Assembly: GCA_000091205.1 (NCBI GenBank)
Contig: AP006500.2
DNA length: 64,000 nt
Reading direction: 5' to 3' (one strand)
Source: Cyanidioschyzon merolae
Lineage: Eukaryota
This document shows, piece after piece, positions 4,690 through 53,587 of this stretch. Position 1 is the first letter of the stretch, and the number at the start of each line of letters is the position of its first letter. Under the pieces are notes generated by a model. It searched no databases, was not told the origin of the DNA, and saw only the letters and a list, made by a program, of their open reading frames with translations. A program made the position numbers and the translations under genes.

Positions 4690-5193
4690 ATGAGCTTTAA
4701 CGGGGGGTTTCTCGGAAAGAACGCCGTGTTCGCACAGACGATGCTTCGAATCAAGGACCCCTCAAAGTCGCGGCAGTTTTACGAAGCGCTGGGTATGAAC
4801 TTTCTGACGCGCTTCGACTTTCCGGAACTGTCATTCTCCCTCTATTTCTTCGCACTGGAGAAGGATCCAACAGTGCCGGCGGAAGATGCTCCACAACCAG
4901 AGCGGGCAAAGTGGCTTTTCTCGCGTCAGTACCCGACTCTTGAGCTTACACATAACTGGGGAACTGAGAAGGATCCGAATTTCAAGTACGCGAACGGGAA
5001 TACGGAGCCGGGTAAGGGCTACGGGCACATCGGCTTTCTCGTGGATGATCTCTACGCGAGCTGTGCTGCCGTAGAGAAAGCGGGTTATGTCGTGTCGCGG
5101 AAACCGGGACCCTTCCAGAACGTGGGCGAAATTGCTTTCGTACGGGACCCGGACGACTACTGGATTGAGTTAATCCAAAAACCCAAGTCTTGA
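4690..5193 (+). CDS. Glyoxalase I (lactoylglutathione lyase), eukaryotic/human type
   Basis: Six-frame ORF is 4405..5193; the probable start is the Met at 4690 ('MSFNGGFLGKNAVFAQTMLRIKDP'). Motifs 'TLELTHNWGTEKDPNFKYANGNTEPGKGYGHIGFLVDDLYASC' and 'IAFVRDPDDYWIELIQ' closely match human GLO1 ('TLELTHNWGTE...[21 protein letters not shown]...AFIQDPDGYWIEIL'). Confidence 0.8.
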   Translation: MSFNGGFLGKNAVFAQTMLRIKDPSKSRQFYEALGMNFLTRFDFPELSFSLYFFALEKDPTVPAEDAPQPERAKWLFSRQYPTLELTHNWGTEKDPNFKYANGNTEPGKGYGHIGFLVDDLYASCAAVEKAGYVVSRKPGPFQNVGEIAFVRDPDDYWIELIQKPKS

Positions 5194-6406
5194 GCAGAAC
5201 GTGCTCATGGATTTTAGAAGCAGGCGATGCGGACGAATGTCTGGGAGTCTCCGAAAGAGTCACTGTTTCGTCGGTGCAATGATAAGCAGCCCGTTTCAAG
5301 GTTGCCCGTATCCGGTGATTTCGGGAAAAACGCGAGTTTCCTGTCGAACTCGTCGGCTTAACGATAGAGCGGGGGAATTTTACAGGCAAACTTGGGGCCA
5401 TTGTGCTTCGGATGTAGAAGCCACGACAGCGCCGAAAAGGTCACCTCACTTGCGCTTCCACGCGGAGGCTCCTGCTCACAAAGACGCTCGGCGCGAAGCG
5501 TTGGCATTTGGATTACGAGACTGTTTGTACCTGCTCGCCGGTTCTGGCCGGATTAAACACAAATCTAAGAGAGCACTGCACAGCTATGATTCTGGTTCAC
5601 AGCTGGAGAAGAAGCAGCTTCCAGTTAGGGCGCATAGACTGGTGGCAGCGCTCACAAATTTGGGTGAGATGTGGATGGATATCGCCAGGAGTTCTCTAAA
5701 GGACTAGCATGAACGGATTGCATCTACGGCCTGGAAGTCTGGCGCATCTGGAGCGATCTGCAACCGTAAACTTCCTGCCGACACGGCAAATCAGCTTTCG
5801 TTGCTGCTATTGAGTATCCTGCATCCGCATTTTCTTGAAACTTTCACGCTTTGCAATTGCGTCGAATCCAACTTACTGGTCGAAAACAGCTCAAAACTGG
5901 GACCGACACTCGCCAAGTAGCTGCTCGGCATACATATTTGGGAAGCGAATCCATCGGCGTCGATATAGGGTTCTGATGCTGTTGCATACCAGCAACACAA
6001 GCACCTTGGCAGATGCACACGTCGCTTCGGCATCTGTTGCGTGCCACAGAGAAGTGCATATCGCCGTATGCGCATCGATTTCCAAAGATGAACGCTGAAA
6101 GACGACCGGGACTTCGGCGCGATTCACCGCACCGGAGGCTGCACAATTATAAGACGCTTTAATATTTGACATTCTACTTTCACATAAGTTTCAAACCGAG
6201 TGGTGTTCCGGGACAAGACGGGTGTTACTGGATATCGTGTTGTCCAGTTGTCAACGGATTGGTGTAAAATTTTTCTGTTACAACACAGCTGAGGCCTTTT
6301 TGCTATGCAACTGGGCGAGTAGACCGGATACGTGGCCCAATCTAAGGCTTCCTTACTCGACCCTCTGGCACTGAAAGTAAGCTGAATCCGATAAGCATCT
6401 CACAAC

Positions 6407-9965: not shown

Positions 9966-12163
9966 CAGTTGTGTAGAGCGCTGGCCCAGCGTTGTCTGTT
10001 ACTCGTTCCTGACACGTGCTGAGGAGACCGTGTGTGTCTTAAAATAATTTATATCTTGCTGTTCTGCGTCGCCTAATGATAATCACGGCAGATTCTGGAA
10101 AATTTCGACGGCATGTATTCCAGAAAGTATCTGAAGTATGGTGTTAGTCGGTATTTAGGAAATTTTGTTCGAGAGTAGACTGACATTCATCAGGGTAAAG
10201 TCCAGGAGGAGAAATGGTATGCCTGCGAAACGAATCCGATTAGCCGCAAACCGCAACGCTTTTCTGAGTCTCAGTAATCACCAGACGGATCATTATGCAC
10301 TTTAGAGGTATTGCAATACAACTCGGTGCTTGTTTTTGGGCTGCTCCGGATTCTGGAATCAAATATCGTTCCTCACACGAAAACAACGCTAGGATTCTGG
10401 GCTTAGACACGCTTATCTACACAGGGATTTACAAATACCGCCCATTTTGATGACTTTTCGCAACCCAAAGCAGGTAATAGGCTTTTTCCAGGATTTTCGG
10501 AGGCAGCATTCACTGAAACGAGGAGTGCAGTTGGGAATTTGGTGCGCCAGAAACTGCCATTTTGCGCGCTCACTGGCCGGCACGTTAGCGGCGGAACAGC
10601 CCTGGTAGCCGCATACACTGCGGCCCAGAGCGTTCGATCCACGCACTGACTGCGCGTGAGCGTATCGGGTTACTCTTCGCCGACGGGAGCGTGCCTTAGA
10701 ATGCATGCGTATACATGTCCGTCGTGGAGCATTCACAATCCTCTTCCGAAGGGGACTCTCGACGGATGCGGGTTGGCATCATCCACTCCCTCCAGCCTCG
10801 AATTGACGTCTGTTTGGCACAGCAAAGCCGTTCTCTCTCAATGCGACGACTGCCTCAAAGGTGGATCCAGCATCGCAGCAAATGCCCACTGTAGCTCCAA
10901 CATATGAGCGGATTCTAGATTGATCTAATCAGCATCCACGACGAGCAGCCTCTCCAAAGGTCAGTCGAGGTAGCCGATTCTGGAAAAGATCACCATGCAC
11001 CCCTCAGGTTACCGACAGCAGTCGTGCATTTAGCGGATTCCTGTTAGATTCACGGATCTGACTCTATAGCACAAAGCATATCGCCCATATATCTCGCAGA
11101 CGACAGCGGTCGTGCGTCGACTGGATTTCCTTCAGATTCTCATACCCGGCACCGTAGAAAAAAGGAATCTGCTTTCTTTCTGGTTATCGACAACAGACCT
11201 ATGTCCACAGAATTCCGGTCAGAATCATGGGACATGCACAACTAAAATCGAATAGCCAGTTCGTGAGCATCCACGACAAATGCATGGCGCTGAAGCAACC
11301 GCCTGTAAGCAGACACGCTGGCGTTTCAGCCAGCAGCAGCCGATACCGTGCGATCGGCTTGGCATCTCCTTCTCGACACGCTTATGGCAGGAGGACCCCA
11401 TCAGCGTCGATGCCAGATGATCGCCTTTCATTTCTGAGTGCAGGTGCACGTGTGGATCGCCTGTTCGCGTCCCCGTGCGGTACCATACTTCCAAAACAGT
11501 CCGCCAACATACAGAGTTTGTGAGTTCACTGAAAGCCATGCAGCCATTTCCTCCAAACGATTGGAGTTGCCGTTTTTACGATAATCATACGCTCGTTTTC
11601 GTTTACTAACCGCTTGATGCTAGGACGAAAATCTATCCATTCGGAACGAACAAAGTCCATTGAGGTATTTTGCACGCCTCAGGCAAGAATCCTGTTGCTC
11701 GCCACAGATCGCCATCGTCTGGCGGTCTATCACTTCATCAATCCAAAGATTCTGGCACTTACAGCTATTAGGAGCATAGATCATTATTCTCAGCCCCCAA
11801 ACCAGTTCTTTTGGTGGTACACGAGGTGCCCTGGTACGACACCCAGTCGAGCGCAACGTCCGCGGCCGCTACGTGGACCGGTGCCAAGCATCTACCCCGA
11901 CGCACGTCGTCCTTCGTGTGCGAGCAGTAGAGGCAAATCCTGGACAGTGCACTGCACGCTCGCACTGAAATGGCCCCCTCCCCAAACGATACTTGCAAAC
12001 GACTGCTGTGCGGACAGAGAAATCCCACCACGCAGTGCTGCAGAGAAAATGGATAAACCGGCGACAATGGATCGGTTTCAGAGAGCAGCTCCCCGAGGCT
12101 GCTCTGCTCCGACGCTGTCAAGCAATCGACGACGCATGCCAGCGTACATGCAGGTAGCGATTC

Positions 12164-13999: not shown

Positions 14000-14559
14000 T
14001 TTTCGGGGGGCGCTTTTGCATTCGTGCCTGAATAAAAGTGGATAGGTCTACTTGTCGAACTCGCGTTTGCATCATCAAGTTTGGGATGCTTCCCGACGCT
14101 ATCTACACCAGCGTTGAGGAGATTTTTCCTCCAACCATTTCCATATTCTTTCCCATACCTTCATCGGGGGGCACGGCGGCCTCTCGTGTCCCTCCAGTTC
14201 CGTTGTCAGCAGTCGATGAATGTTGGTGCCGAGGTTCAAGTCGCGATTTCGCTGATTCCGCTTGTTTTCATTTGCGTTTGACGCACAGGTGCACGTTATG
14301 AGAGACGCGACGCATGCCATTTTCGTCTTCTTTGTATATAGCCTGGGTACGACCCTGGCAGTGGTGAGGCATTTTAATGGTCCGGGGTTGCGCTGTATCC
14401 ACAACACATCTCACTCCAAGGCGGGGCTGTAGCGCGTGAACGCTCGCTGGATCGCTCGATATATTTCCTTGACGGGTACCGAGGGCTCGCCTGAACGCTC
14501 TCTTCCGTCCCCGCGCTGTGCCATGCCCTACGATCAGGGGCTTGTTGTGGGCGATGGCA

Positions 14560-15080
14560 TCAGCGAGTCATCCGTCCGCAGCACACGCGGGCGTACGTAG
14601 TACCATTCTATAGACGATTTGGGGAGCATGATATCGTGCATGACGAAAAACGATCAGAAGGAAAACCTAGCTGGAGAACAAGTCAAGAAATGTCGACCCG
14701 TATACGCTCTCTTCGTACAAAGCAGAGACGCACCTTCGACATGAAGCGATCACAGCAATGACTAATTTCCGAGTCCGATACCCTTTTGGATGCGAACCGA
14801 GGACACAGGAGCCTCTGGGAGCGTAGCCCGGTAAAGGTGTCTTGTAGCTGCGTAAACCTATATCAACGATGATCAATCAGAGAAACGTACTTGTCTTTCG
14901 AACGGAATCGATGATTTGAAGTGACATGTTCAGTGAGCTCGCGGCAAGAGCTCGTGAAGATGTTGTTAATTGACGACTGCTTGACTTTTAGCTGGTCAAT
15001 GCGGCAGCGCGAAGTGCTCTGCCTACGAGCTGTCTTTAAATAACAAGCTCGAAAGCTTGTCGAATGTGCAATATGAGTTT
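14560..15080 (-). repeat. Partial copy of the dispersed repeat superfamily (core2 'GCTGGAGAACAAGTCAAGAAATGTCGA' at ~14672, core1-complement at ~15045)
   Basis: The segment 14600-14700 aligns with 29620-29700 of the IR arm ('gcatgatatcgtgcatgacgaaaaacgatcagaaggaaaacctagctggagaacaagtc' versus 'gcacgatgttgcccacgacgagacacgcaccggaaggagaatccaggctggagaacaagtc'). A second core lies about 370 bp away. Confidence 0.5.
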
Positions 15081-16430
15081 GCTTCACGTAAGGAAATCAG
15101 ACAAGTGGAGGCTTATATGTATGAACAGGATGATGATATCTATTATTTCGCGAAAGCTAGTTCGTGTGCATTGCGAACCATCGAAACGGTGGTGAAGTAA
15201 TGAATTCCTGCCGCAGTGAGTCGCAGGAACCACTCCGAAAAGAATCCCAAGAATCCGAAACCTCGTCTGAACACGTGAACCCGCATTATCGCACTTCGAA
15301 AGCGGAGGCTGTCCATCTTGCAAACGCTACCAAAAATTGACAGACTGGAAGAGAGCGAGCAGCACAGCCTTCCGCTTCAGTCTGAGACGGGTGTCGCGTA
15401 TCGTTCCGAATAGGCATGCCTATACACAGTCCTGGTTGCACAGCCTATCGGGGCCTGAACTGACAATGGGCTCTCGTCCAGCCCTTGTACAGAAAAGCGT
15501 AAAGGAGTTGCGAAATCGTCTTTTTCTTCGTAAAGTGTTATCGAGGGCTCTAGATCGATTGTGCATACCATTGGCAACCACTTGCTGGGTAGTGCCCGAT
15601 TGCAGTGAACATTGTCGAAATGATAGATCAGTCCCGGATCGGCTCTCGCAGACGGAGAGCGCGTATGAGCGTTCCTATGCTCTTGGCTGAACGCCCTGTT
15701 CTCCATCTATAGGCGGTACTTTTTGCACTGCCTCCTATTCTTGTGCTTCTGCATAGTTGAACGATTGGTAAGGATCTTCGAAAAATCATGGTAGAAAAGG
15801 TGTCTCTTTAGTCGGTGCAGAATGATCTAGGGGAGGACTCGGAATGGAGCCTGCCTCGGACTCCGCAATCACGGATTCCTTCAGATTGTCTACGAATGTA
15901 AACCAATGAAACTTCTTCTGGCCTTAAATCGCGCCTTGGAACGCACCTCTGTCTCTGGATCCGCCAATTACTTCACAACATCCATCTTAGTAAACCAGTT
16001 CAACTTCTGTGTTCCATAAGAGGGCCTGCCTTGTATGTTCCGATTCATTAATTCCAAGAGCCTTGCTCTAAAATTGTATCACTACTGATCTCGTGAAACA
16101 ACATCATTGGTGGTGTTCATTTACATATCTTTATCGGATATTCCGCAGCATGCGAGCGCCGCTTCGAAGTGAAAATTCCGACGCAAAAGTCTGGCCCAGG
16201 ACCGTTCACGTGTAGCTGTGTCTACAGCGGCTCGGTTGTCAATGCTCTAGCTGCTGTAGACAGACAAGGTTCATGGGGTTTTAGCTGCAGCCATCGGCTT
16301 CATATCAAAAACATCAAAGCAGAAAATCCATATAGCGAACGGGCCGGGATAAAGCACTGTGCATGTTGAGCTTTTTTTCTGTATCCAAGAAACGCGACTC
16401 AAGTATTGCGGAACCATGATGGATGCCCAT

Positions 16431-20264: not shown

Positions 20265-20606
20265 GCAGTTGCATACAAAGCGGGACGGTTAGCGCTCTGC
20301 TGAGTAACGATAGGCAATAACTTTGTATCGAAAACAGCAAACTCGCTTGTAGTGCGATCGAGATGCTATATAAAAATGGATCTTTTTGGACATCAAATCC
20401 GAGTCGCCCACACAAACGGCGTGGGGGAAAACCCTCGTTGCCTGCTATGGCATATGCACGTCGACTTATGTCGGAATGAAATGGAAAAGTCCAGCCAACT
20501 CGGGGTTAAACTTTCAGACTTTGATCACTTGGGACTGTAATCAACACCAGCTTGTACGAAATTTCTCTTCGACTACCTTCGTGTCTTTCTCTCGAATCGC
20601 TGACTT

Positions 20607-21108
20607 TTAATACGTCGGTATCTCCGTGCTCTCAAGGCCCATATTTTGCTGTCCAAAGACGTTGATGGCAGCCTTGAAGTCCCCATTTAGCAGCGCCCAG
20701 CTATTGACGACGCATTTTATGCTTAGGAGGACGTCGCGATTCACGAATCGCTTCCCATTTTCATCTACTTTGTATTCAGCCCAGGTCTGCTCTTCGTAGG
20801 GGTGAAACTTGACCGCGATCACGTGTTCCATTGTGTCCGCTAAAATTACTCCTCCTGCGGATGCCACGCTGTGGTTCACGAAAGCTTGGTTCATAGCGCA
20901 TTATATGCCTTTGATGAGCATAGATGGCTCCGTTCGCCATTTTGATCAGCTTCTGGACCCGGTGCCACACCTTACGATAACAGGCTTTCTCTGGGCGATC
21001 CCCTCGGGGAGTATTCTTTCCACTGTACACGCAAGAGCTCCAAGCTCCATTCCATAGCTTCCTATCTGGCTCCTTGCGCGCTCTTCGTTTTCTGCCTACT
21101 CTTCCCAT
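20607..21108 (-). pseudogene. Degenerate TnpB/Fanzor-like (RuvC-III region) remnant, copy 1
   Basis: Overlapping minus-strand ORFs in different frames. Contains 'GKRFVNRDVLL...GDFKAAINVFG', and the nucleotide segment 'cgattcacgaatcgcttcccattttcatc' is homologous to the copies at 23.2k, 27.8k and 53.85k. Confidence 0.4.
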
Positions 21109-22299
21109 AAATCCTGCCGATGAGCTTGATGGGCATCAAGGTACCTGAACCGATCAAGAGCAACGTGTCCGCACTTTCCATGCGCTTTCGACAAGGCAGT
21201 AACGGCCTATGAAATTCGTTCCTGTTTCGCTCCCTTGAAGTAACATTCTCTCATTCCGTTCCTTCTCCTAAAAAAGAACATGAAAGGTGTGTGAGTAGAA
21301 CACAAGAATGTAGGTAAAATTCGGAGCGTTGGAGACATCCGGCTCTCGAGCGTGGCCGTTGACGACAGGGGTCGGTGTCCTCTTCGGGTGTCATGGAATC
21401 GCAGTTGCAAAGGCTTATCCTCCATGGATACATGCCGGTGCAGTTCGCATTGAGGACAAAGTTCGCAGGACTATGCATCCGCATTGCTCGGCGCTGCTCG
21501 GCGTAGCTCCCTTTCTGGGCATGGGTACATGTGCGCACTGTCGGTCATGAAGCGTGCAGGACGTTCGTGGATGGTGTTGAATGTTGCCTCGCCAGCGGTC
21601 TCGATGGAGGGCAACTGTTGCCCTATGTATAGTGCAAACCGCCTGTACCTCCCTTTTTCTTCCCATTCGCATCTCTCTTTGCTTTCAGTCGATTTTTGTT
21701 CATCCAACAGTTTACAAGTTCCTTCTAAGCTTCGAGTGAAAATTGCAGTGTTCCCTTCATCATGTCTTCGCCCGCAAACATCTACTCTTCGTTTTCAACG
21801 CTGTCGTTTTCCACCGGACGCATCTACGCCTAGTTTGCGAGGATGCCCCCTCTACAATGAAGCGAAAAGCGCGCGAATCAAGACGCTGGTATAAAAGACC
21901 GAGAGATTCATTCGAATTAGGCAAGATTATTTCCGTTAGGGGCGCTGGAACAGCACGCCACATGCAGAAGCACCATCGCTTTCGTGTGCGGGTTACTCAC
22001 AGGTGGTGGATCCACCTTATTCTCGGCGTCGTCGCGCTTGAAGGATCTTCTATGGAGGTGCTTCATGGACTAGGTATTCTGCGAGCCTATTAAGCCTCGC
22101 CGAAGAGCCACTTGTGAAGAGCTATCTCATGCTGCTGACTGAGTTGCCGACCTCTGACTATGCTGCATCGAATCCCCCATGTTGGGAAGGAGACTGACAG
22201 CTGATTGGCAATTCGAAGTGAATAAGAACAGAAACCAGCACCCAGCGAGAAATTGGATGTGCGTTCCTCTCTTCCTCCTGCATAAGATATTGAGGAAGA

Positions 22300-22750: not shown

Positions 22751-23059
22751 TGGTGGAAATTTCAGGCTGGGCGATATGATGGACGGTTTCTCGGATGCCG
22801 TGATCAGTCGCGCAGTTAAACCCCTCTGTCAGTGTAAATATTTTGTCGTTTAAAAAATTAGAAAAAAATCACATTCGACGCGCCGCTGTTCGAAGTGATC
22901 AGATAATGAATGCTGTAGCAAAAAGATGGACAGAGTCTGTGCTGTCCTATTTATACAAATCGTCCGTGGAACAAACAATGTTTTACGAGCATGTGGAATA
23001 AATTAGTATCCACTCACAGATGCCTTCCATCCTTTTTAAGCGTCCGACTGCTATCGGCT

Positions 23060-23326
23060 TCAGCTTCTCCAAGCGCATTTCGACTCTGAGAGGTTGCCCC
23101 AAAAATTTGCTCGTGTCAGCCCCTCGGGTACCGTCTTCAGCACCGTACATCTCCTGACATTTATGACAGCGTTCCAGTCTCGATTCACGAACTCCATGCA
23201 TTTCTTGCCGCTGTTTGAACTCACCAGTGCAAGGAGAACTCGCGCGCCTGCCTTTTGTACCATTTGCTGCTTCGTCAGCTCTGGGTGCCTATCTACCACC
23301 GAAGCGCTCCGCTGCCTTTCCGCCAT
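23060..23326 (-). pseudogene. TnpB/Fanzor-like C-terminal remnant (RuvC-III motif), copy 2
   Basis: 'GKKCMEFVNRDWNAVINVRRCTVLKT': a Cys, then the 'RDxNAxINI' motif, which is the hallmark C-terminal catalytic motif of TnpB/Fanzor RuvC-III. It lies directly 3' of the transposase remnant on the same strand. Confidence 0.5.
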
Positions 23327-23470: not shown

Positions 23471-24087
23471 TCACTGTGTGCTGAAAGGTTCAGCGAATCG
23501 CATATTGGAGCGATCATTACCTGTCACAATAGGGAACATTCCTTCGATGGGGTTGAACCAAGGATTATACGGAGGACTGAAAAGCAGTTTTGCCTGGATA
23601 GAATCTGCAAAATCTCGAACACTAGCGGAATGATGAAATATTACGTTGTCCAAAAGAAGATCGTCGCCAGCCTTCATGGAAACGTCTTCAATGATGCGGC
23701 AAAGTGGGTGCTGTTGAATCAGCCTTCTCTACGAGCGAAACTGAGGCCGACAATAGTATCCACTACATCTAGAACAAATGATGATATTCTCGTTCCCTTC
23801 GAGTTCGATCATACGAACAATGGGCACCCTGCTCAGCGAATACCCATACACTTTCCGATCGTTCCGTGAGAAGAAATCTCACAGACTGAAACACATCTAG
23901 GTTCCACTGCTTCATACCGATCGCGACGTTCATGGAACTCTGTAGATGCATTTTCGGTGGAATATGGCCTTGCGTGAACAAGGACTTTCTTGCGACTGTA
24001 TCCCAGTGTTTTCAGTACCACACGAACAAGCTGTTGAGAAAGAGAGACTCCCGTGGTGACTGTGATCGACGCTTTTGCATTCCGCAA
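23471..24087 (-). mobile_element. Frameshifted Tc1/mariner (IS630-like) DDE transposase remnant
   Basis: Three minus-strand ORF pieces. An HTH region 'LSQQLVRVVLKTLGYSRKKVLVHARPY' (23833..24087). A degenerate first-D region (23769..23981). The C-terminal catalytic region 'LLLDNVIFHHSASVRDF...LLFSPPYNPWFNPIEGMF' (23471..23677), matching the Tc1/mariner 'DNA..H....PPYSPDLNPIE' signature. Confidence 0.6.
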
Positions 24088-25673: not shown

Positions 25674-25754
25674 CTCAGACCGCTGGGAGTCTGCATACTG
25701 CTTGACCCGCAGACCGGTGCCGTCGACAAGCGTTCAAGTTTTCTTAGGGTACCT

Positions 25755-27146
25755 CTGTACCCTTGCCAGTCTAAAACGGAGCACTGAACTGCTCGCCATG
25801 CTCCTGCATTTCGGTATTTTCCGAACATTTTTTCGATGTGCAGCCTCGACAATCGAAGTGAAGCAATAACGGCGTACGGTTTCATAAGTGGTTTTACGAT
25901 TCTCGCGCGTATTTTGGGAGTGACTCGGTTCACGCCCTGCCGCTGCAATTCGTCACATTTCATCAATCAAAGTGCACCGCGCGGCCCTGGAGCATGCGTT
26001 CGCACGGTAACCGACATCAGTTTGCAAGCCGAACGCCCCAGCGTCCGCTCCTGCCCTCTCCTCCCCTTGCGCGTGTCATGCTCAAACCACGCATTCTCCA
26101 AGTCTTCGATTCTTCCGTTTCGGGGCACCTCGTGGGGGCAGCTATTCGCGCCGATGGATTGACGAGCAAAATACCACACGTAGTCTATTGGCGACTTGTG
26201 CACAAGCTCATGCCGAAAGCTCCCTGCACTCGGCACGTCAAATGAACGATTCCGTTCGATAGACAAACCCTCCTTTCTCTGTAGCTATCAAGGAGACGGC
26301 ATTCGACATCAGCATGGTACCATACACAAAGAATCCACCAGGAAGCTCCAGTTTCTTCCGTTTGCACGGAAGACGGGCGTGAACTCGGGCTTTAGTCATT
26401 GCACGGACCGTTTCCAGTGGGGAACGCATCTCTGTTTCGCGCCACTGGAATATAGACAGATCGAAACCTCTCGACTTGTTCTCCAGCCTGGATTCTCCTT
26501 CCGGTGCGTGTCTCGTCGTGGGCAACATCGTGCCCCGCGAATCCTCTGTCGAATAGCGCAGGATGCGCTTCCGAGTGCGCAGCGGACAGAGTTCTCGCTG
26601 GAAGCATGGCCCAGCGGAAGCCCCAGATCATGGGGTACGGTTCAGTGCGCCGAAGCGGAGGTGGGCGTCCACGCGCGCCTTCTGCACCGGTCAAGGGCAT
26701 GTGCCGAGCGCTGAAGCAAGCCTTCAGGTGCCACAGGGCGGCGCGCGAGCTCGGATGTCTGATGGACATACAGAAATACCTGAACACAGCCAAGTGCCAC
26801 AGCGGCGAAGTGCCTACTGAGCCGTACGGAAAGAGGACGAGAAAAGCGCGCAAAGCGTATATCGCAAATTTCGTACTTGCATGGAATGTGTCGCCAACAA
26901 CCGGTAACAGCTGCATAGGGACATGAACGCTGCCACCAACAGCCTTCGACAATGTGCACTGGAGCTGGTGGGAAAGGGGGGTATGATGCATTTAAAGCCG
27001 GAAGTAAGAGGGAGGACACCGAACCGGTCACCGAAAAAGCCGTGAAAGGCTGGTATTGATGGCAGTGGCAGGAGAGGCCCAACCTGTTTGTGTGCGTGTC
27101 CCCGGATAACACAGTGGACCCGTTCCATTTTAGCCTGACGTAGATG
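25755..27146 (+). repeat. Left arm of a large inverted repeat (~1.39 kb); member of the dispersed repeat superfamily
   Basis: The reverse complement of 29024-30405 matches almost base for base. The ORFs of the two arms mirror each other (25836..26162+ = 29998..30324-; 25967..26266- = 29894..30193+). Boundaries were fixed by direct comparison of the junction sequences. Small indels between arms include 'ccccactggaaacgg' versus 'ccccacggaaacgg'. Confidence 0.85.
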
Positions 27147-27767
27147 TAGCCGGTGAATGATCGCAGGCGATGCACGAAGCACGCGGCGGTAGCGGTAGGA
27201 GTTCTGTGCTGTTCCATATATACGGCGTTGTCATACGTTTGCAGTCCGTTTGTTACGCGGCAAAGAAGGATTAATATTCAACTCAGAGCAGGTCATGGAA
27301 GTCGATTCAATTTTGCCATTCAATGTCAAATTTTGTCATTCATGGACGCTTGCCTCATGTTCTTGGGTGGCTCGACTCGCACTCTCGTCGCTAACGCATC
27401 GGTACGGAGCAGTTCTGAGCTCATCGCGGCACAGCGTTCCGTCGATTTCAGGTAAAGCGCAACTGGGCATACGCTGCAAGTTGAATAGGATATTGGTTTA
27501 CTTGGACCAAATGAAGGGGTCGTTGAGCCCAATAAGTTTATCCAGATGCCCTTCCACATAAAGGAATCGATAAACTTCGGAACTGTGTTTCAGTTATCAG
27601 AAGGACCAAAAAGCGTTCTACAACCATGCAGTCCAAATACCCGCTTACTCACAGACGCCTCCCAGCTTTCTTTTGGCAGGCAACCGAAATTGGAATCCGT
27701 TTTTATCCCAGCGAACTTCGATACCGAGAGACCGCCCCACAAAGTTGGCTCGTGCCGGCTCCTCGAG

Positions 27768-28016
27768 TCAATTCGTCAAAACCACACATCTTCTGATATT
27801 GATGGCGGCTTTGCAATCTTGGCTCACGAACTCCTTGCATATATTGCCTCTGGTTGAACGCAACTTTGCATGTTTCCCTCGAACTTGCACCCTCCGCGCC
27901 ATTACAATCTCGTCATCGTTCCGTCGGGCAAACTCCTCGGCCCGCCTACATCCTTGTTCTTCTTCAATTGCTCTTCTTCGCTCGTTCGGTAGCTGGCGAT
28001 GATGGCCCTCCAGCAT
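27768..28016 (-). pseudogene. TnpB/Fanzor-like C-terminal remnant, copy 3 (in the IR spacer)
   Basis: 'RGNICKEFVSQDCKAAINIRRCVVLTN'. The nucleotide segment 'ctcacgaactccttgcatatattgcctctggttgaacgcaac' is homologous to 23.2k ('ttcacgaactccatgcatttcttgccgctgtttgaactcacc') and 53.85k. Confidence 0.5.
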
Positions 28017-29023
28017 CCCCGACTTCCATATCCATATCTCTCACTAAGACCTTTTTAAAATAAACACACTTCGAACGTATATGCTATAAACCACAAAAGA
28101 TAAGCATTTGATTCCACTCATCTGGGCGTGGAACACAATTGAAGAAAAAGACTACAAGATACAGGCAGCCGTTGCTTTCAGGAATACGGCACGCGTTGGA
28201 GTTTGGATCATGAACCTGGACGCTGGCGGCGGTCGTCGCAGCCGCCGCTGCCGTCTGCGGCCTCAGCGTCAAAGAACGGCTGCATTAAATTATTTTACTC
28301 GAGGGCATCGCCTTCTTCTATACTGCTGAAGCATACAGACGTTATTTCTTTGTTAAGCTTGCGCTTAACGCTCGACACCCAAGCTCGCGATTGTTGTCCA
28401 ATAGCATGGAATCTCTCTCTACTGCACCAAGGGATGAGCGCTTTCCCCACACGAACCAGACGAGGAACTGCTGGGTTCGCTACGTTGAGTGGAAACTGTG
28501 CGAAGAGAAACACGGCGAGGAAGAGTCCGAGTGCAAAAAGTTTGGTCGTTGGGCACGCGCACTTTGCCCAGTAGACTGGATCGAGCGGTGGGATGAACAG
28601 CGAGCAAACGGGACGTTTCCTGGGCCCTCCGGCGAGTCCTCGTGAGCATATGGCGCTGCATATTTCAGTGACTACGGGCTCCGCGGAAGAATTGGAACTT
28701 TCCTAGTACTGCTTTTTCTGACAGATTGAGGCGAAAGGTTCTGGGCGACTTCCTCGACGGAGAAATGTTTTCCACTCGAAAGAATATCATGCATATGGTT
28801 CTACAACCACAAAACAACAGCAGGTCTGTGTCGTATGCGACTTGCGAGTTTTATGGCCTACCTCCTGGTCTCTTGTCATGAACAACGGCGCGCCATGTGA
28901 AAGCATGGAAGCCCATCATCACTTGAGAGAATTTGATTGAAATTCTTTGGACCAGAGGAGAAATATAATCACACTCGGGAAGTGCTTATGGCGATGTTTC
29001 TCTTGTTCGCTAGACATCTACGT

Positions 29024-30405
29024 CAGGCTAAAATGGAACGGGTCCACTGTGTTATCCGGGGACACGCACACAAACAGGTTGGGCCTCTCCTGCCACTGCC
29101 ATCAATACCAGCCTTTCACGGCTTTTTCGGTGACCGGTTCGGTGTCCTCCCTCTTACTTCCGGCTTTAAATGCATCATACCCCCCTTTCCCACCAGCTCC
29201 AGTGCACATTGTCGAAGGCTGTTGGTGGCAGCGTTCATGTCCCTATGCAGCTGTTACCGGTTGTTGGCGACACATTCCATGCAAGTACGAAATTTGCGAT
29301 ATACGCTTTGCGCGCTTTTCTCGTCCTCTTTCCGTACGGCTCAGTAGGCACTTCGCCGCTGTGGCACTTGGCTGTGTTCAGGTATTTCTGTATGTCCATC
29401 AGACATCCGAGCTCGCGCGCCGCCCTGTGGCACCTGAAGGCTTGCTTCAGCGCTCGGCACATGCCCTTGACCGGTGCAGAAGGCGCGCGTGGACGCCCAC
29501 CTCCGCTTCGGCGCACTGAACCGTACCCCATGATCTGGGGCTTCCGCTGGGCCATGCTTCCAGCGAGAACTCTGTCCGCTGCGCACTCGGAAGCGCATCC
29601 TGCGCTATTCGACAGAGGATTCGCGGGGCACGATGTTGCCCACGACGAGACACGCACCGGAAGGAGAATCCAGGCTGGAGAACAAGTCGAGAGGTTTCGA
29701 TCTGTCTATATTCCAGTGGCGCGAAACAGAGATGCGTTCCCCACGGAAACGGTCCGTGCAATGACTAAAGCCCGAGTTCACGCCCGTCTTCCGTGCAAAC
29801 GGAAGAAACTGGAGCTTCCTGGTGGATTCTTTGTGTATGGTACCATGCTGATGTCGAATGCCGTCTCCTTGATAGCTACAGAGAAAGGAGGGTTTGTCTA
29901 TCGAACGGAATCGTTCATTTGACGTGCCGAGTGCAGGGAGCTTTCGGCATGAGCTTGTGCACAAGTCGCCAATAGACTACGTGTGGTATTTTGCTCGTCA
30001 ATCCATCGGCGCGAATAGCTGCCCCCACGAGGTGCCCCGAAACGGAAGAATCGAAGACTTGGAGAATGCGTGGTTTGAGCATGACACGCGCAAGGGGAGG
30101 AGAGGGCAGGAGCGGACGCTGGGGCGTTCGGCTTGCAAACTGATGTCGGTTACCGTGCGAACGCATGCTCCAGGGCCGCGCGGTGCACTTTGATTGATGA
30201 AATGTGACGAATTGCAGCGGCAGGGCGTGAACCGAGTCACTCCCAAAATACGCGCGAGAATCGTAAAACCACTTATGAAACCGTACGCCGTTATTGCTTC
30301 ACTTCGATTGTCGAGGCTGCACATCGAAAAAATGTTCGGAAAATACCGAAATGCAGGAGCATGGCGAGCAGTTCAGTGCTCCGTTTTAGACTGGCAAGGG
30401 TACAG
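29024..30405 (-). repeat. Right arm of the large inverted repeat
   Basis: See the left arm. Terminal junctions are 'acatctacgtcaggctaaaatggaac' (inner) and 'gactggcaagggtacag' (outer). Confidence 0.85.
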
Positions 30406-30643
30406 TTTACAGCATGGAAAAACTTCGCTGTGCGTGGGTATGTGTGTGCATATTTACGTTCATAGATGCATGCGCCCCGCGAAGAGCCCTGTCCTTTACT
30501 CGAGTAATACAATCCATCGGCCTGCGAATCAGACAGTTTTCACGAATCTTGCATCCAGGGATGTGTTTTCTGAGGGACTCATTGAGCAATCTTTCGCAGG
30601 TGCAGCAGTGCGGATGGCTATACGAGCGCACGCATCTACGGTT

Positions 30644-34982: not shown

Positions 34983-36080
34983 TGGCCAACAGCGCCCGCG
35001 GTATATATGCGAACGAAACGGCGAATAGAGACCCTACAGGCTGTCGTACGAGTAAGTCGCCAGCTGTCCATGCGGTAAGCGCCAGTTGACACCTCGGGGC
35101 TATTTCGATTCCGCACCCGCAGACATTGATCCGTCTGTATTGGACCGGATGTCAAACCGGTAGCATGGGAGCTAGGATTTTCGATACGGACGCGACGGCA
35201 ATCGCATGTTAGTCTGAGCGTTGCTCCGCTTGTGCGAGCTCTCGAGACAGACTCGGATACGAGAGCTGGTACCCGTCTGCGATGGACCCGCTTGGACTGC
35301 TACCTTGCACCGGCGCTCGCGGGAGATAGGAAACTAGAATCCTATCTTTCTGTCAAAACCTTCCTGGAATTCCCTTGGGGTGCTTGATTCTATTCAGCGT
35401 TCTTCAGTCTGGAACTGGCGGGTGCCAAAGTGTTGCTGTTATTCTGATAGTTTCACTCATGCAGCAAAGGCGAAGGCCCTCTCGAAGACGCAGCAATGCT
35501 CCGCGCTTGCCGTCTGGGCGCTGATCTCTCCCCCCTCCATTCTAGACAATTACCGATGCTCTTGGGATTCGCTCTGGCCATCGCTTCTCGCGGGGCCAGC
35601 TCAGGGCTTGAACGACAGCGCGGCCTCAGCAAGTTGGGTTATTCTCGTGAAGGCAAGTCGGTTGATTGCATGCTGCACGCGCTACTATTCCGTACGGCAG
35701 AACGAGCGTTCTAAACCAGCGCCTACGGGTCGCCTTTCGAACGCTGCAATTCCTCTCTGGTGACCTGACAGGAGGGCTCACCCAAGATCTCGCTTGCTCG
35801 TAGGGCTCTCAGGGCCGCGCCACTGAATACTGACGCAGCCCACTCCTGCAAACTTTGACGATACAGAACCTGCGGCCTTTGAGGCTTATGAAGCGTGCCC
35901 CGTGGGGCACGCATTCTGCATTTGCGTCGTGACTCCACAGCAGGGCAGCCGCCAATGCAAACAGCCCGTAACCATCGGGCTCGCGTGTGCGGCCTGTTAC
36001 CGCACGGTTAGCCTGTCACCAGGAGGCAAAAACACTTGTCAGGCTCAAAAGATGCATTGCAATCTTCATTTTGTTCCCGC

Positions 36081-37460
36081 CTTTCGATCGTTTCCCGAAT
36101 GTTCGCTAGAAACACAGCTGCAATATTCAAAGTGCAGCAATAACGGCGAATGGATTCATGGGTAGTTCTATGCCCCTCGGTTGTACTATCCGTAGGGATC
36201 CCGTCGACTCCCTGCCGCTGGCATTCGATACGTCACCGGGATCAAGATGGTTCGTGACGCCCTCATACGCGGGTTCGTAACATAGCCGATATCATCATCT
36301 CATTCAGTCGCACGCGCCTGCACTCTTCTGTTTTCCTCAAGTATAGCATGCTTGAATCATGCATTCTTCAAGTTTTCGATATTTCTCCTTAAAGGCAACT
36401 CGAGGGCGCAGCAATGCGTACAGCTGGGTGGACAGCGAAAAGAATCGCAACGACTTCACTTGAAGACTTTGTCACATGCTCATATCGAAGGCTGACTACA
36501 ATTGTCAGGTCAGCTAATCGCATCCGTCCGAGAAGGAAATCCGCCCGTCCTTGAGACAAGCGGCAACGTGGCGTTCACAGCCGGCGAGATAACGCTCACG
36601 GCATACGTCCCCAGAGGCTTCGCTCGCTTCCGTACACACCGAAGAAAATCGGAGACTCAGACCTGAGTTATCGCAGCGACCGCGCCAGATAGAGAGTCTG
36701 GCACCGCCTTGCACGGAGGAAGCGTAGACGGATCGAAGTTTTCTAGAATTGCGCTCCAGCCTGCATTTTTGCCTCGCGGTACATGGTTCACCACGAAAAG
36801 CTTCCCGTTCCACGAATCCTCCATCGAATGCGACACTGTGCACTGGCTTGCGCTGGCTTGCACTGGCTTGCGCTGGCATTGCCCCGCACTGCCTCGAGCC
36901 GACGCCCTCTGTGTGGTACGGCAACGCCGTTCTGCCTCCGTGCAGCGACCGCACTGGCGCTATAGGCGTCATTGCTGTCGCTTTCGGCAGGCACTAGGCA
37001 CACACGATAGGACGTATGAAACGACTAGAATATCCGGGAAGTAGTGTGGGTCATGGAACTTGGAGGCAGGGCGTTCGATGGCTACTTCACCGCACACAAA
37101 CAAAAAGAAAACAAAAAGTGCACAATCGGAGAACGCTGGCCTAAGTAAGCATTTTGTCAGTGAGAAAAATCCGACACTGTGTTCGCTGAGGGCATTGCGC
37201 TGATGCAACCTGCCAGCGAAGCGCACGGCAGCGAGCCCGCAAACTGAGAAGAGCATCGTGGTAAGCCTTCGATACTCGTCAATTGCATGGAACGAGCGAA
37301 AACGCGAGCTGTACGACGCCTCAAAACGGCCCTCCGAGGAAGAGGAGCAGGAGCAGGAGAGGCTTTGGTGGATATACGGGAACACCTGACCACAGCCAAA
37401 AGTCATCGATGCGAGGACGCACAGAGGCTGTATACAATGAAGATGAAAATGGCAAGCGAA
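36081..37460 (+). repeat. Direct repeat copy 1 (1.38 kb), a divergent member of the dispersed repeat superfamily
   Basis: Essentially identical to 46739-48119 at an offset of 10,658 bp. The embedded ORFs are identical (36514..36972- = 47172..47630-; 36709..37044+ = 47367..47702+). Only two single-residue differences were seen in the translated ORFs: H versus Q, and M versus R. Confidence 0.9.
36844..36883. repeat. 10-bp minisatellite (CTGGCTTGCR)x3-4 inside DR copy 1
   Basis: 'ctggcttgcgctggcttgcactggcttgcgctggcattgc' read directly. The mirrored copy is at 47502-47541. Confidence 0.8.
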
Positions 37461-38360
37461 GCGCAGGCTGCAACAACCGTCCGCGCAACAAGTGCGTCGA
37501 CAACTACCGAACGCAGTAAAATCGGGACTTTACCACCACCGCCATCAATATCCTGCGACTGCCGAAAACCTAGCCAGAGAAGATAGGAACAGGAAGCAGT
37601 CACAGAAAAAGCCCGCACACGCTAGTCTCGATGCCAGCTCGAAGACATCCAGCCGTTCAGATTCGCACTCGAGCGCGCAGCGAGCACCGCAGCGTATACC
37701 TAGCGGACACGTATGTCGGACCCGATCCAACTGGAGGCCCCTGTGCGCTGCTTCGTTGCTGGCGGGCAACGCGCAAGCACGCGCGCGGCGCCGTTGACCG
37801 CGAGATCGACGGCGGGTATCTCACGCGTTGCGCGAGCGGCTGTATGCGATGGCGCGCGCATCTGCAAACGCCGCCTCTGAAAATATCTGAGGAGCGGGGC
37901 GTACACGCGGCGCCGAGCGTCGCGTCTCGAGAACGTTTCGCGGGCGATCCTGCGGCGAAGGCGCGCTTCGTCTCGACATCGCTAGATGCTGTGCGCTGCA
38001 TTATCGAATGCAGCTGCGCGTCAGCGGTGATATCTTGTAGCTGCAGTGCTGTGACGTGAGCGACCAGTTGCTCGATATTTGCGTGAGACTTCGAATCAGC
38101 GCTATAATATCATAGTTGTGGAGGTTGACGGCTTCTTTGACTGGTTCGAGGGGTGAGCGACTACATCTACTAGAAGCAGTGAGCAAAGTCCGGACGGCGG
38201 CGGCGGCGGCTTCTAGAACCTCGGTACGCTGAGGGTTTGGCACGCGCAGGCGCAACCGAGCTCGAGAACGCAACTCCTGGGGCGAATTTGTGCCAAACTT
38301 TTTAGGTTGTTTTCTTGAGTTTAGTTCGTCTGTGGGCGGCTAGAGTGTCGGCGCGGTACG

Positions 38361-45328: not shown

Positions 45329-46738
45329 CCTGCTCCCTCGCCAGCGTCGTGTGTCGACGGCAAGGAGTACTCAAGAACCTCGAAACGCACCCGAACCGCA
45401 ACACAAAACCGGCAATCACGACACGCTTGCACTAGCTATCGTAAGCACTGGAAGCTCCTGAGCTGTTTCAGTCTCCCCGTTTTGCAAGCCCCAATGAACT
45501 ACAAACCAAAGCGCACCAGCAGTTTATCTCCAAGCCACAAACTGACAAAACTGCTGCCCCGAACGAGCCACAGACACTATACCAATAACAACCCGCCGTG
45601 TGGACTTTCAGAAAACAAGCCCGGCAACAAAAACTATTGCCGCGGCTTCAACCAGTTGCAAGCCAATGCGTCGATAGATAATTAGCAACGCTTGTTGCGT
45701 CGTCCGCCGTCGCTGCAGCCGCGTTGCCCGCTGGATCGCGCAGATCGCGCCCATCCCCGTTGCTGTTGCGCTTTTCTTTAAGGCTGCGACGGCGCGCGTG
45801 CGCTCGTGCACCGCGTGGAGGCTCCCCGGGCGCTGCTGTTGCTGCCGCGCGCTTTAAACCAAACAGACACGCCCTCGACGACGGGGACGGCGATGGATGT
45901 CACATGTGACATCCGGCGAGACCGCATGAGTGGCGCTGCGCTCCCGCGTCCGCGACGTGCCGTGGTGCGAGCGCGGGGCGCGATCGGAATGGGAAATTGG
46001 ATAATGCAGACAATGCGGACAGGCTGCGCGGGCGTCGATTTCTTGCTGATCCCGTGGCGACGCGTGCGGGTTGTGTGGAAACGGCAGCGGGCAGTCATGC
46101 CGTGCACCGCATGCCGTCGCTCGGTGTTGGCCATGGCGGGGCGGTGGCGCACGCGCTCCTCATTGATAGGGGATTCGCGGTGGTAGAAGACTCGGACTGG
46201 GTGTTATGCTGGAGTGCCCAGTTTGAAGTCACCTGCCTGAAAGTGCGTCTTCGCTCGAAAACTGCGAATTCCGAAGGTGTTTCTGGTGCCTAGATGTCCA
46301 ATCAGCAGTGGTTACGATGGAGCTCAGTTTCTGAGTGACCTGGTGCGCTGACGGTAGCGTGACGTCGCTGCATTTGGGCCTCGGCCATGGTCTCTTCGAA
46401 GCGCAAACCTCCTTTATGACTGCGTAAGCCAGTCTGTTTGAAAAGATGTGTGGAATCCGTTTACCTCCACGGTCCACAGGATGAAAGACGCTGATATACC
46501 CACTTGATGTTTGACATTGCGGTACAAGACAGACAATCGCAGTTGCCTTGCTCCGAGGCTGCATAGTCGGTGTGCACGGTGTCGTCCGTGGGAATTTATC
46601 ATGATGCACTGATTGCGACAAATATCGCTGCGGCTTATTGGTACACGCGGATGAACAAAATGCAGCTACTTGGCCCCAAGCTCTGCTGAACCCATTTCGG
46701 ATAAAAATGGAACACTGAAATGCTCGTAGTGTTATTTT

Positions 46739-48119
46739 CTTTCGATCGTTTCCCGAATGTTCGCTAGAAACACAGCTGCAATATTCAAAGTGCAGCAATA
46801 ACGGCGAATGGATTCATGGGTAGTTCTATGCCCCTCGGTTGTACTATCCGTGGGGATCCCGTCGACTCCCTGCCGCTGGCATTCGATACGTCACCGGGAT
46901 CAAGATGGTTCGTGACGCCCTCATACGCGGGTTCGTAACATAGCCGATATCATCATCTCATTCAGTCGCACGCGCCTGCACTCTTCTGTTTTCCTCAAGT
47001 ATAGCATGCTTGAATCATGCATTCTTCAAGTTTTCGATATTTCTCCTTAAAGGCAACTCGAGGGCGCAGCAATGCGTACAGCTGGGTGGACAGCGAAAAG
47101 AATCGCAACGACTTCACTTGAAGACTTTGTCACATGCTCATATCGAAGGCTGACTACAATTGTCAGGTCAGCTAATCGCATCCGTCCGAGAAGGAAATCC
47201 GCCCGTCCTTGAGACAAGCGGCAACGTGGCGTTCACAGCCGGCGAGATAACGCTCACGGCATACGTCCCCAGAGGCTTCGCTCGCTTCCGTACACACCGA
47301 AGAAAATCGGAGACTCAGACCTGAGTTATCGCAGCGACCGCGCCAGATAGAGAGTCTGGCACCGCCTTGCACGGAGGAAGCGTAGACGGATCGAAGTTTT
47401 CTAGAATTGCGCTCCAGCCTGCATTTTTGCCTCGCGGTACATGGTTCACCACGAAAAGCTTCCCGTTCCACGAATCCTCCATCGAATGCGACACTGTGCA
47501 CTGGCTTGCGCTGGCTTGCACTGGCTTGCGCTGGCATTGCCCCGCACTGCCTCGAGCCGACGCCCTCTGTGTGGTACGGCAACGCCGTTCTGCCTCCGTG
47601 CAGCGACCGCACTGGCGCTATAGGCGTCATTGCTGTCGCTTTCGGCAGGCACTAGGCACACACGATAGGACGTATGAAACGACTAGAATATCCGGGAAGT
47701 AGTGTGGGTCATGGAACTTGGAGGCAGGGCGTTCGATGGCTACTTCACCGCACACAAACAAAAAGAAAACAAAAAGTGCACAATCGGAGAACGCTGGCCT
47801 AAGTAAGCATTTTGTCAGTGAGAAAAATCCGACACTGTGTTCGCTGAGGGCATTGCGCTGATGCAACCTGCCAGCGAAGCGCACGGCAGCGAGCCCGCAA
47901 ACTGAGAAGAGCATCGTGGTAAGCCTTCGATACTCGTCAATTGCCTGGAACGAGCGAAAACGCGAGCTGTACGACGCCTCAAAACGGCCCTCCGAGGAAG
48001 AGGAGCAGGAGCAGGAGAGGCTTTGGTGGATATACGGGAACACCTGACCACAGCCAAAAGTCATCGATGCGAGGACGCACAGAGGCTGTATACAATGAAG
48101 ATGAAAATGGCAAGCGAAA
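46739..48119 (+). repeat. Direct repeat copy 2 (1.38 kb)
   Basis: See copy 1. Junctions: starts 'ctttcgatcgtttcccgaatgttcgc', ends 'gatgaaaatggcaagcgaa'. Confidence 0.9.
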
Positions 48120-48814
48120 TATGCATCGAAACATCTGCATGCGCATGAAATGTGTTGAAAACCACTGGAAGCAGCAAAACAGGGGCTTTAAATCTGCAGT
48201 GAACATCTTCCGATCGCTAATGATGGAGCTGGAAGGAACGGAGACACCGTCGTATCTCAAGTCGGAGCTCGAAGAGAAGGAAGAAAATCAGCCGCGAAAA
48301 AGCCCTTAATGCCTGTTGCTGACGGCAATTGGAGGATACCTAAAATTCAGTATTCACGTTCGAGGTAGAATAGTGTATCCGTTTCATTTTATTCTGAGAG
48401 AGGTCTAGCTCATGGCAGCTATAGAAAATGACTCACTGACTGGCTGCCACTTGCGATGAAGAGCTTGCATAGCAGGTTCTTTTCTAGATCGCAACACCTA
48501 CTGCAGGACCAGAGCTTGGGACAGTATCGTGAATAAGTGTTGTGCTTTGAGAAAGCGGCTGCACGGGCTCTGTACCAGAACGACAAGCGCGGTGAGCCCG
48601 CTACGCTGAAGATGCATTCGCGTTCGAAGCAGCGGCACACACAAGTGCGGTGCTGTCGCCCGCTAGCGCTGGGAGCGCTCCGCAAGCACACTCTTGAGGG
48701 CAACTTTCCCATCACGAGTCGAGTACTTTCACGCTTGCACAGTTCTAGAGCCGCGAGAGGCAGCACGCACAACTTCGTGGCCGCTGAAGCAGACGGCGCT
48801 CCTCGAGTTCGAAG

Positions 48815-53110: not shown

Positions 53111-53587
53111 CACGATGAACGGAGAATCGGGGCTTGGACGCATGCACTGGATAATTATATAGATTGCATGGCGAAGCCTTGTCCAATGTCATTGCAAATT
53201 ATGCGGGTTACGGTAAAGTAACCAAATCTAGCGGCGAAGCATACATTGCGCGACTCCGAAAAGACGAGCAAGCACTCCAAAACTAAGAATGAATTCGTAA
53301 GCCCATAATCTTGCATTTTGAATGTCAAGTATATTCATCGGGAAAAACGAAAGGAAACCACAGAGCGCGCTATTCAGTATTCCATTTTCATCTGATGTCG
53401 GTGAAGATATCAGAGCTAGGTCCCGGCGATCAACAACGTTTTGCAAAACCCGAACATTTTTGTTCATCATGTTCGATTCTGTGGCATGACAAACGCCGAA
53501 GGCGTCATACCCATTTGCGTCTGCTGGAACAAGCGAGTCTCTGGGAAGGCGCTGAAGTCTCGTACCCTGATCGTTGGCAGCGATCCC

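Follow-up and report, generated by a model that had tools for sequence, protein, structure and literature searches.

Two tail-to-tail relics of a Fanzor1-derived repeat bracket the COX6B gene of Cyanidioschyzon merolae, with arm-to-arm gene conversion as the favoured source of their near-identity

The gene for cytochrome c oxidase subunit VIb (COX6B) of Cyanidioschyzon merolae 10D lies between the arms of a long inverted repeat, in a stretch of 64,000 nucleotides from contig AP006500.2 that was analysed as a whole (hereafter the window; positions are counted from its first letter). The arm-spacer-arm unit measures 4651 nt. By repeat finding and blastn, the left arm (armL) spans 25755-27147 on the plus strand (1393 nt) and the right arm (armR), its reverse complement, spans 29014-30405 on the minus strand (1392 nt), with 99.93% identity, while the spacer between them (27148-29013, 1866 nt) is unique sequence. 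The arms differ by no substitution and by one 1-bp indel, an extra A in armL at 26416 (arm position 662; TTTCCAGTGGGG in armL versus TTTCC-GTGGGG in armR). An inverted repeat of this length and similarity is far beyond chance. Its existence, size and near-perfection, claimed by a first-pass annotation made from the letters alone, are real; only the start of armR (placed at 29024, 10 nt off) and the number of indels (a few, where there is one) had to be corrected.

Three host genes share the locus. A parvulin/PIN4-type peptidyl-prolyl isomerase gene (BAM82588.1, 25290-25673, plus strand; Pfam Rotamase, E 1e-22; an exact match to C. merolae 10D) has its stop codon ending at 25673, 81 nt from armL. 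On the opposite side, the stop codon of a Vps29-like phosphoesterase gene (BAM82590.1, 30644-31333, minus strand; Pfam Metallophos_2, E 3.5e-11; exact NCBI match) begins at 30644, 238 nt beyond armR, and both distances agree with the earlier description. COX6B itself (BAM82589.1, 79 aa, 28406-28645, plus strand; Pfam PF02297, E 8.8e-17; exact NCBI match) was the only Pfam match found in the arm open reading frames (ORFs) and all six frames of the interval. The proposed picture of an element inserted between two convergent genes is incomplete, because its spacer holds a conserved and annotated host gene.

The same gene order is found in two other genera. In Cyanidium caldarium (contig L032), parvulin(+) at 10001-10378 is followed by COX6B(+) at 10744-10986 and Vps29(-) at 11061-11744, then by Sld5(-) and APC3(+). 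For Cyanidiococcus yangmingshanensis (L031) the positions are 10390 for the end of parvulin(+), 10866-11103 for COX6B(+) and 11685 for the start of Vps29(-). The interval from the parvulin stop to the Vps29 stop is 683 nt in Cyanidium, 1295 nt in Cyanidiococcus and 4970 nt in C. merolae, and in the two shorter intervals neither inverted repeats nor sequence resembling the arms was found. Since both genera have the same order without the arms, parvulin(+)-COX6B(+)-Vps29(-) is the ancestral order and orientation, with COX6B in its ancestral place; the two arms and a small repeat fragment in the spacer are Cyanidioschyzon-specific additions flanking COX6B. Apart from that fragment, which comes from a different repeat, the spacer is host DNA, and the comparison of orthologous loci called for earlier does reveal the arms as extra in C. 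merolae. In the Cyanidiococcus assembly (VWRR01000015.1), COX6B is present but uncalled in the gene set, and its tblastn match comes as two overlapping pieces, which suggests a frameshift or an assembly error.

The reference arrangement was compared with independent assemblies, namely contigs assembled from the metagenomes of many acidic hot-spring samples, which share 99.5-99.85% identity with the window. Both outer junctions (parvulin flank/arm and arm/Vps29 flank) are found there at identical bases, and both inner junctions were recovered in contigs L001, L027/L034 and L035. In L001 parvulin is followed by an entire arm, the entire spacer and 95 nt of the second arm; in L027/L034 the spacer is followed by an entire arm and Vps29; and L035 contains one arm, the spacer and 164 nt of the opposite arm. 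In 10 samples a stand-alone contig (L047) has exactly the spacer ends, 27148 and 29013. Short-read contigs mostly stop after 121-201 nt of an arm, which is the signature of a true two-copy repeat. Assemblers are known to fail on perfect palindromic structures, and a chimeric join or a collapsed repeat in the reference was considered for that reason; however, all four junctions recur in independent assemblies (with L001 and L027/L034 spanning), the positions of the contig breaks fit a two-copy repeat, and the spacer separates as its own contig, so that an artefact of this kind, the outcome that was to count against the structure, is hardly credible. The arm-COX6B-arm arrangement occurs at identical junctions in every sampled natural population. 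The single indel of 10D is missing from L027/L034 and L035, and because the Vps29-side arm of L027/L034 has the extra A, the 1-bp deletion in armR would be either private to 10D or a sequencing error.

The arms also lie within transcripts of the neighbouring genes. The poly(A) addition site of the Vps29 mRNA is at 30384-30389 (minus strand), where the metatranscriptome contigs L021, L049 and L050 end in A9-A11; the tails start 17-22 nt inside armR, so the cleavage site of this mRNA is supplied by transposon-derived sequence. A TGTAAA motif just outside armR (30407-30412, minus strand) is assumed here to be the putative Vps29 poly(A) signal. The loci with a Vps29 poly(A) observation are L021, L049, L050 and L054. 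The arms are, in addition, transcribed as the 3' portions of the parvulin and COX6B mRNAs, and these portions are mutually complementary because both run into the inverted arms.

About a dozen contigs (L013/L038, L014, L033, L036, L037, L039-L042, L045 and L046) join the parvulin flank to an arm and then to the spacer entered from its right end, which gives the appearance of a flipped spacer. Nearly all of them start at 28273-28405, upstream of the COX6B ATG (L039 starts within the ORF, at 28564), and at their other end all of them stop close to the parvulin 5' region; an Illumina adapter stands at the start of two, and two have foreign 5' pieces. The 5' ends of COX6B transcript contigs cluster at ~28273-28336, and the poly(A)-tailed contigs L021, L049 and L050 come from the same or neighbouring JGI (Joint Genome Institute) samples. 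The Lemonade Creek study, in which C. merolae-like algae were dominant, comprises metagenomes together with poly-A and RiboMinus metatranscriptomes (PMC11662350). The apparent-flip contigs are RNA-assembly chimeras, in which a COX6B transcript running into armR is joined to a reverse-complemented parvulin transcript that runs into armL; assemblers fuse the two because the arms are identical. L013 and L014, tried as inverted-spacer (flip-flop) isomers, were rejected on the same grounds (starts in the COX6B 5' untranslated region, adapters, foreign pieces and poly(A) sister contigs). The genomic-looking contigs L001 and L027/L034 match the spacer orientation of 10D, which is the ancestral one.

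Beyond the locus, the arms belong to a dispersed repeat superfamily, as the first-pass annotation had it. The boundaries of the repeat unit were examined by aligning an arm with 500 nt of flank on each side to the window copies; local alignment with permissive scoring ran into random flanks, and X-drop blastn was used instead. The family has at least seven copies in the window, those other than the arms being 57-60% identical to the arm. They comprise c14 (14033-15392, arm positions 5-1378), c62 (62521-63879, arm positions -1 to 1377), c52 (52087-53364, arm positions 57-1343), D1b (46686-47545 plus 47827-48409, arm positions 1-1396), D1a (36032-36887 plus 37169-37559, arm positions 5-1196) and a partial copy at 20525-21057. 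In four of the five full-length copies the homology begins at arm position -1 to 5 (57 in c52), and it stops at 1343-1396. The homology is thus bounded by the two termini of the inverted repeat, and each arm is one complete unit of a dispersed family of ~1.39 kb.

The outer ends of the arms are the 5' ends of the unit (CTGTACCC...; D1b starts with CTGAACCC at 46686) and the inner ends are its 3' ends (...TTCCATTTTAGCCTGACGTAGATGT), so the two units stand tail to tail, with their 3' ends toward COX6B. The 3' end possibly extends through the trinucleotide AGC. Tandem Repeats Finder reports one trivial 20-nt repeat in the arms, which are otherwise without tandem subrepeats, and no internal terminal inverted repeat (TIR) was found in the arm unit. 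Inspection of the arm flanks and of the window copies revealed neither a target-site duplication (TSD) nor a conserved target motif at the unit ends. A 7-nt inverted match, AGGGTAC..GTACCCT, lies across the left outer junction (within 25744-25764), and AAGTTTT(T)C occurs 11-13 nt outside each outer junction (25731-25743 and 30417-30430); these matches may be due to chance, target preference or old homology. Within the arm itself, 26004-26207 and 26296-26487 are connected by three short direct-repeat pairs with a consistent spacing of 280-292 nt, which suggests that ~290 nt of the unit were duplicated internally long ago.

Each arm contains a decayed remnant of the C-terminal part of a Fanzor1 protein, frame-shifted and interrupted by stop codons, at 26576-27021 (plus strand) in armL and, as its mirror, at 29140-29585 (minus strand) in armR. 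By eye, in shifting frames, the motifs KPQIMGYG (KPxIxGYG), ...YLNTAKCHSGEV, FRTCMECV and HRDMNAATN can be read; the remnant takes in the RuvC-II region, a CxxC zinc finger and RuvC-III (HRDMNAATN). In Pfam the arm peptide alone gives Cas12f1-like_TNB below threshold (E 0.069), which improves to E 1.1e-4 for the majority consensus of four copies. Sequence searches of the PDB with the arm peptide, the four-copy alignment, the consensus and the relative P0152 alone yielded no relevant match, and a word-indexed protein search with the arm peptide returned only itself. When the exact arm ORF piece 26504-26860 served as query, an exhaustive HMMER search retrieved 31 proteins, whose long cluster-mates include apparently intact proteins of 690-830 aa from hot-spring metagenomes.

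The profile A3 was built from an alignment of these intact relatives, which display the motifs IETDGVGVS, GLDPGRVNLY, KPVIIGYGTGRGNGGG, WEHxTTQKCHRC, DRDFRVCxxC and RNRDFNAAINIL. One of them, P0164, matches Pfam PF07282 (Cas12f1-like_TNB) with 34.9 bits (cutoff 26.3), and A3 has a single match in the PDB, the Fanzor1 of Parasitella parasitica (9cf0, E 1.5e-3). In armL the profile matches 26576-26803 (profile positions 543-615, E 1.1e-17) and 26824-27021 (664-732, E 2.4e-5), and on the minus strand of armR it matches 29358-29585 (E 1.1e-17) and 29140-29337 (E 2.4e-5); the consensus of four family copies scores 115 + 56 bits. Against the six-frame translation of the window, A3 detects eight to ten further remnants besides both arms, nearly all of them intergenic: 14177-14639, 20577-22090, 37206-37567, 47864-48282, 52156-52624 and 62634-63089, with weaker ones at 23141-23194 and 53813-53947. 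The best-preserved remnant of the window is at 20751-21263 (E 9e-23).

The arm units cover only A3 positions ~532-736, that is the C-terminal ~200 aa with RuvC-II, the zinc finger and RuvC-III, and in the A3 search positions 1-531, including the GLDPGR RuvC-I region, were unmatched anywhere in the unit. No relation to the intact proteins is seen in the first ~0.8 kb, and stops and frameshifts occur throughout. Of Fanzor1 the unit thus retains the C-terminal third only. Because nothing beyond ~532-736 is represented and the first ~0.8 kb is unrelated, it is a non-autonomous derivative that never held the whole nuclease, and since only the decayed C-terminal third is present, the arms are unable to encode one. 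The 3'-terminal motif AGTGGACC..GTTCCATTTT...TAG.TGTAG, which also terminates other window copies, occurs 20-60 nt past the stop codon of an intact Fanzor1 relative on contig L048. In a search for an omegaRNA, the arm gave no Rfam or tRNA match, and RNAalifold found no consensus structure among six aligned 3' ends. The relative on L048 (ENA, European Nucleotide Archive, ERZ27315599 k141_70426; gene 3344-5422) is an apparently intact protein of 692 aa, and its neighbours are genes with RNA_ligase, 2H-SAK and Peptidase_S74 domains in DNA of 55% GC; the context looks virus-like, and there may be a viral reservoir of the arm family.

The repeat fragment in the spacer (27602-27983, minus strand, ~380 nt) belongs to a second dispersed family, identified by blastn and tblastx, with relatives at 22967-23264 and 53736-54049. 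It had been labelled as TnpB-like copy 3 and as a Fanzor-like remnant. The fragment is short and does keep a RuvC-III-like motif (FVSQDCKAAINIRRC), but the TnpB/Fanzor label finds little backing, as the consensus of the three copies matches the Fanzor1 profile with 8.7 bits only and neither the ORFs nor the six-frame search of the fragment gave a Pfam hit; the better Fanzor remnants are the arms themselves (E 1.1e-17). A remnant of a Tc1/mariner-type DDE_3 transposase at 23471-23677 (minus strand; PF13358 is annotated on contig L004) adjoins the fragment copy at 22967-23264, which hints that the second family may be carried in a mariner-like element.

The two arms are almost identical to each other, and the age of the pair bears on how this came about. 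In their flanking DNA, L001 and 10D show 26 differences in 10,465 nt (~0.25%); because strains diverged to this degree share identical junctions, the repeat is older than the split from the 10D strain. At 0.25% divergence ~3.5 substitutions would be expected between the 10D arms, and none is seen (Poisson P ~0.03, small sample). A second pair of family members, D1a and D1b, in direct orientation and 10.66 kb apart, is ~100% identical over a 1.38-kb core (36081-37458 and 46739-48118), while the unit ends (the 5' ~50 nt and the 3' end) have diverged from each other, each remaining alignable to the family. This core is apparently an ectopic conversion tract within old paralogues, and on account of this tract conversion can be said to act on the family in this genome. 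At the inner tips armR reads ...GATGT-CT-AGC, and armL, D1b and c52 read ...GATGT-AGC, a 2-nt difference that fits old copies homogenised nearly to their tips. In natural populations a linked two-SNP (single-nucleotide polymorphism) haplotype, G54/A60 (25808 A>G and 25814 G>A), is polymorphic; L001, L013-16, L018 and L042 carry it next to the parvulin flank and L025 alone next to the Vps29 flank, with N at position 54 in L023. A scan of metagenome DNA made to tabulate the haplotype by flank returned 4 loci. Taken together, we consider it somewhat probable that the near-identity of the arms results from arm-to-arm gene conversion between two old, tail-to-tail units, and we favour this over a recent copy of the whole unit.

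Several points weigh against conversion, for which the evidence is indirect. The G54/A60 haplotype on both arms counts for little because L025 may be an RNA-assembly contig and possibly chimeric; the Poisson argument depends on ~3.5 expected changes and assumes equal rates; and a recent whole-unit copy would just as well produce an identity that stops at the termini of the unit. The 199-aa ORF of the arm was found only in contigs of this locus, in a look-up that is blind to unannotated 10D copies, and within the C. merolae genome the search for copies of >95% identity covered the 64-kb window. For metagenome 3300005861 a comparison of L001 with L007 suggests up to 5 differences between the arms within their outermost 194 nt (positions 54 and 60 for the parvulin-side arm; 151, 178 and 180 for the Vps29-side arm), so that either homogenisation is incomplete somewhere or this metagenome mixes strains. 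The strongest competitor makes one arm a young copy of the whole unit, mobilised in trans by an active Fanzor1-associated system in a local inverted hop, with identity as a sign of youth. By itself it would suffice to explain perfect identity across the whole unit; both boundaries of the inverted repeat are family termini, the units keep the 3' motif that also trails the intact Fanzor1 gene of L048, and some CMe-1A copies still encode intact Fanzor1 (Bao & Jurka 2013, PMC3627910). However, the junctions are identical in all sampled populations, ~0.2-0.35% diverged from the 10D flanks, with 0 substitutions between the 10D arms; no other near-identical copy exists among 24 contigs bearing the arm ORF; the other young-looking pair of the window (D1a/D1b) is an apparent conversion tract and not a product of transposition; and the 2-nt difference before the shared terminal AGC would not be expected of a fresh copy. 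To our knowledge, moreover, no transposase is known for this Fanzor1-derived family. On balance we find a recent copy rather unlikely. The fuller version of this idea, that dead 1.39-kb units are still trans-mobilised and land nearby, with the COX6B-flanking pair as a recent local hop, is more doubtful again. If true, it would provide a rare, datable footprint of TIR-less and TSD-less movement of a eukaryotic Fanzor1, in whole-unit copies with a conserved 3' end. The pair would also serve as a natural experiment, in a haploid alga proficient in recombination, on whether perfect inverted arms of 1.4 kb cause an essential respiratory gene to flip-flop.

A further possible origin, one that needs no transposase to place perfect inverted arms on both sides of a unique spacer, is an inverted segmental duplication in which replication template switching or fold-back repair copies one repeat across COX6B, and the 7-nt AGGGTAC/GTACCCT at the left outer junction would be a potential microhomology. 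Such an event requires, though, that both breakpoints happened to lie only a few nucleotides from the repeat-unit ends, and the age argument (shared junctions at ~0.2-0.35% divergence, 0 arm substitutions) applies here too, which leaves this origin improbable. The first-pass annotation had seen in the structure a foldback-like element or a long-TIR DNA transposon without most of its interior; a mobile or composite element with the spacer as its interior belongs with this reading. The long perfect terminal inverted repeats, and transposon-derived sequence in both arms and spacer, speak in favour of that. The structure is nevertheless not a long-TIR or foldback transposon, because the COX6B of its interior is in ancestral position and orientation at the locus, which in two other genera has no arms. 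The check for a TSD at 25755/30405 that had been suggested was run and found no direct repeat in the outer flanks (...GGGTACCT before armL and TTTACAGC... after armR). The arms are also not tandem subrepeats, each being a complete unit of a family that is single elsewhere, and the contigs carrying the arm ORF or COX6B, all of which map to this locus or to the arm-less Cyanidiococcus-type locus, yielded no second cassette. We give such a transposon very little chance.

Under gene conversion, two long-dead, ~1.39-kb Fanzor1-derived units would have entered the parvulin -> COX6B -> <- Vps29 cluster in the Cyanidioschyzon lineage. Homologous recombination between the inverted copies, 1.9 kb apart, would keep homogenising the arms, which therefore need not be young, and the structure as a whole would not transpose. 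Were the arms to cross over reciprocally, COX6B would be inverted without harm, an event that is possible and was not observed. The activity to be expected of the locus is homologous recombination between the arms, that is conversion and possibly inversion. The suggestion that it is a hotspot of fragility or rearrangement found no support, as the junctions are identical in all sampled populations and the genomic-looking contigs that join gene flank, arm and spacer (L001 and L027/L034) are both in the ancestral COX6B orientation.

In general, the feature is a tail-to-tail pair of relics around COX6B, left by an element of an already known type, and is a new instance of known phenomena. It offers a worked example of how striking 1.39-kb inverted arms can be relics from the described Fanzor1 repeats of C. 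merolae around a normal gene. The family is a compact, ~1.39-kb, non-autonomous Fanzor1 derivative with a 3' terminus common to intact Fanzor1 of hot-spring metagenomes, and this shared terminus could help to delimit the ends and the omegaRNA region of eukaryotic Fanzor1 elements. Together with the direct pair at 36 kb/47 kb, the arms would illustrate ectopic gene conversion reshaping repeat copies in a small genome, and because of such reshaping a repeat "age" based on divergence can mislead. The locus is a warning about structural variants inferred from metatranscriptome or short-read contigs, since identical inverted arms yield false "inversion" contigs. The practical effects of the arms fall on the neighbouring transcripts (Vps29, parvulin and COX6B).

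The closest relatives among described elements are in the same genome. In C. merolae ~150 old copies of Fanzor1 CMe-1A were reported, without TIRs and with TSDs undetermined (Bao & Jurka 2013, PMC3627910). The arm units share with CMe-1A and TE-N2_CMe a dispersed, old and highly diverged, TnpB-like Fanzor1-derived nature, the lack of TIRs and detectable TSDs, and non-autonomous forms that have their ends in common with longer elements (PMC3627910). They differ in length (~1.39 kb versus ~3 kb for CMe-1A) and in composition, the C-terminal ~200 aa of Fanzor1 being fused to ~0.8 kb of unrelated 5' sequence. We do not claim that the arm unit is CMe-1A itself. An inverted pairing of Fanzor1 units around a host gene was not found described in the literature searched.

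With composite transposons (two insertion sequences, IS) and Foldback (FB) elements the locus shares two inverted, mobile-derived copies that bracket a gene as long terminal inverted repeats, whereas its cargo has not moved (ancestral synteny) and it has no TSD, no functional transposase, no tandem subrepeats and a single known locus. Perfect inverted repeats, such as the inverted Alu or IS pairs studied by Lobachev et al. in yeast and bacteria, reportedly extrude hairpins or cruciforms and stimulate breakage, and the instability of inverted Alu repeats in yeast is said to drop steeply with spacer length, over tens to hundreds of base pairs; the repeats here are likewise perfect or nearly so, but the spacer is 1866 nt long and the structure is stable in the sampled populations. 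The palindromes of the human and primate Y chromosome and the inverted repeats of plastids have arms that are kept identical by gene conversion. They share with the COX6B locus arms of >99.9% identity, a unique gene-bearing spacer and the persistence of identity across diverged lineages, and in C. merolae conversion is evident in a sister pair of the arm family (D1a/D1b); the arms of C. merolae, in contrast, are only 1.4 kb long, are probably rather than demonstrably subject to conversion, and are dead transposon copies instead of gene-bearing amplicons.

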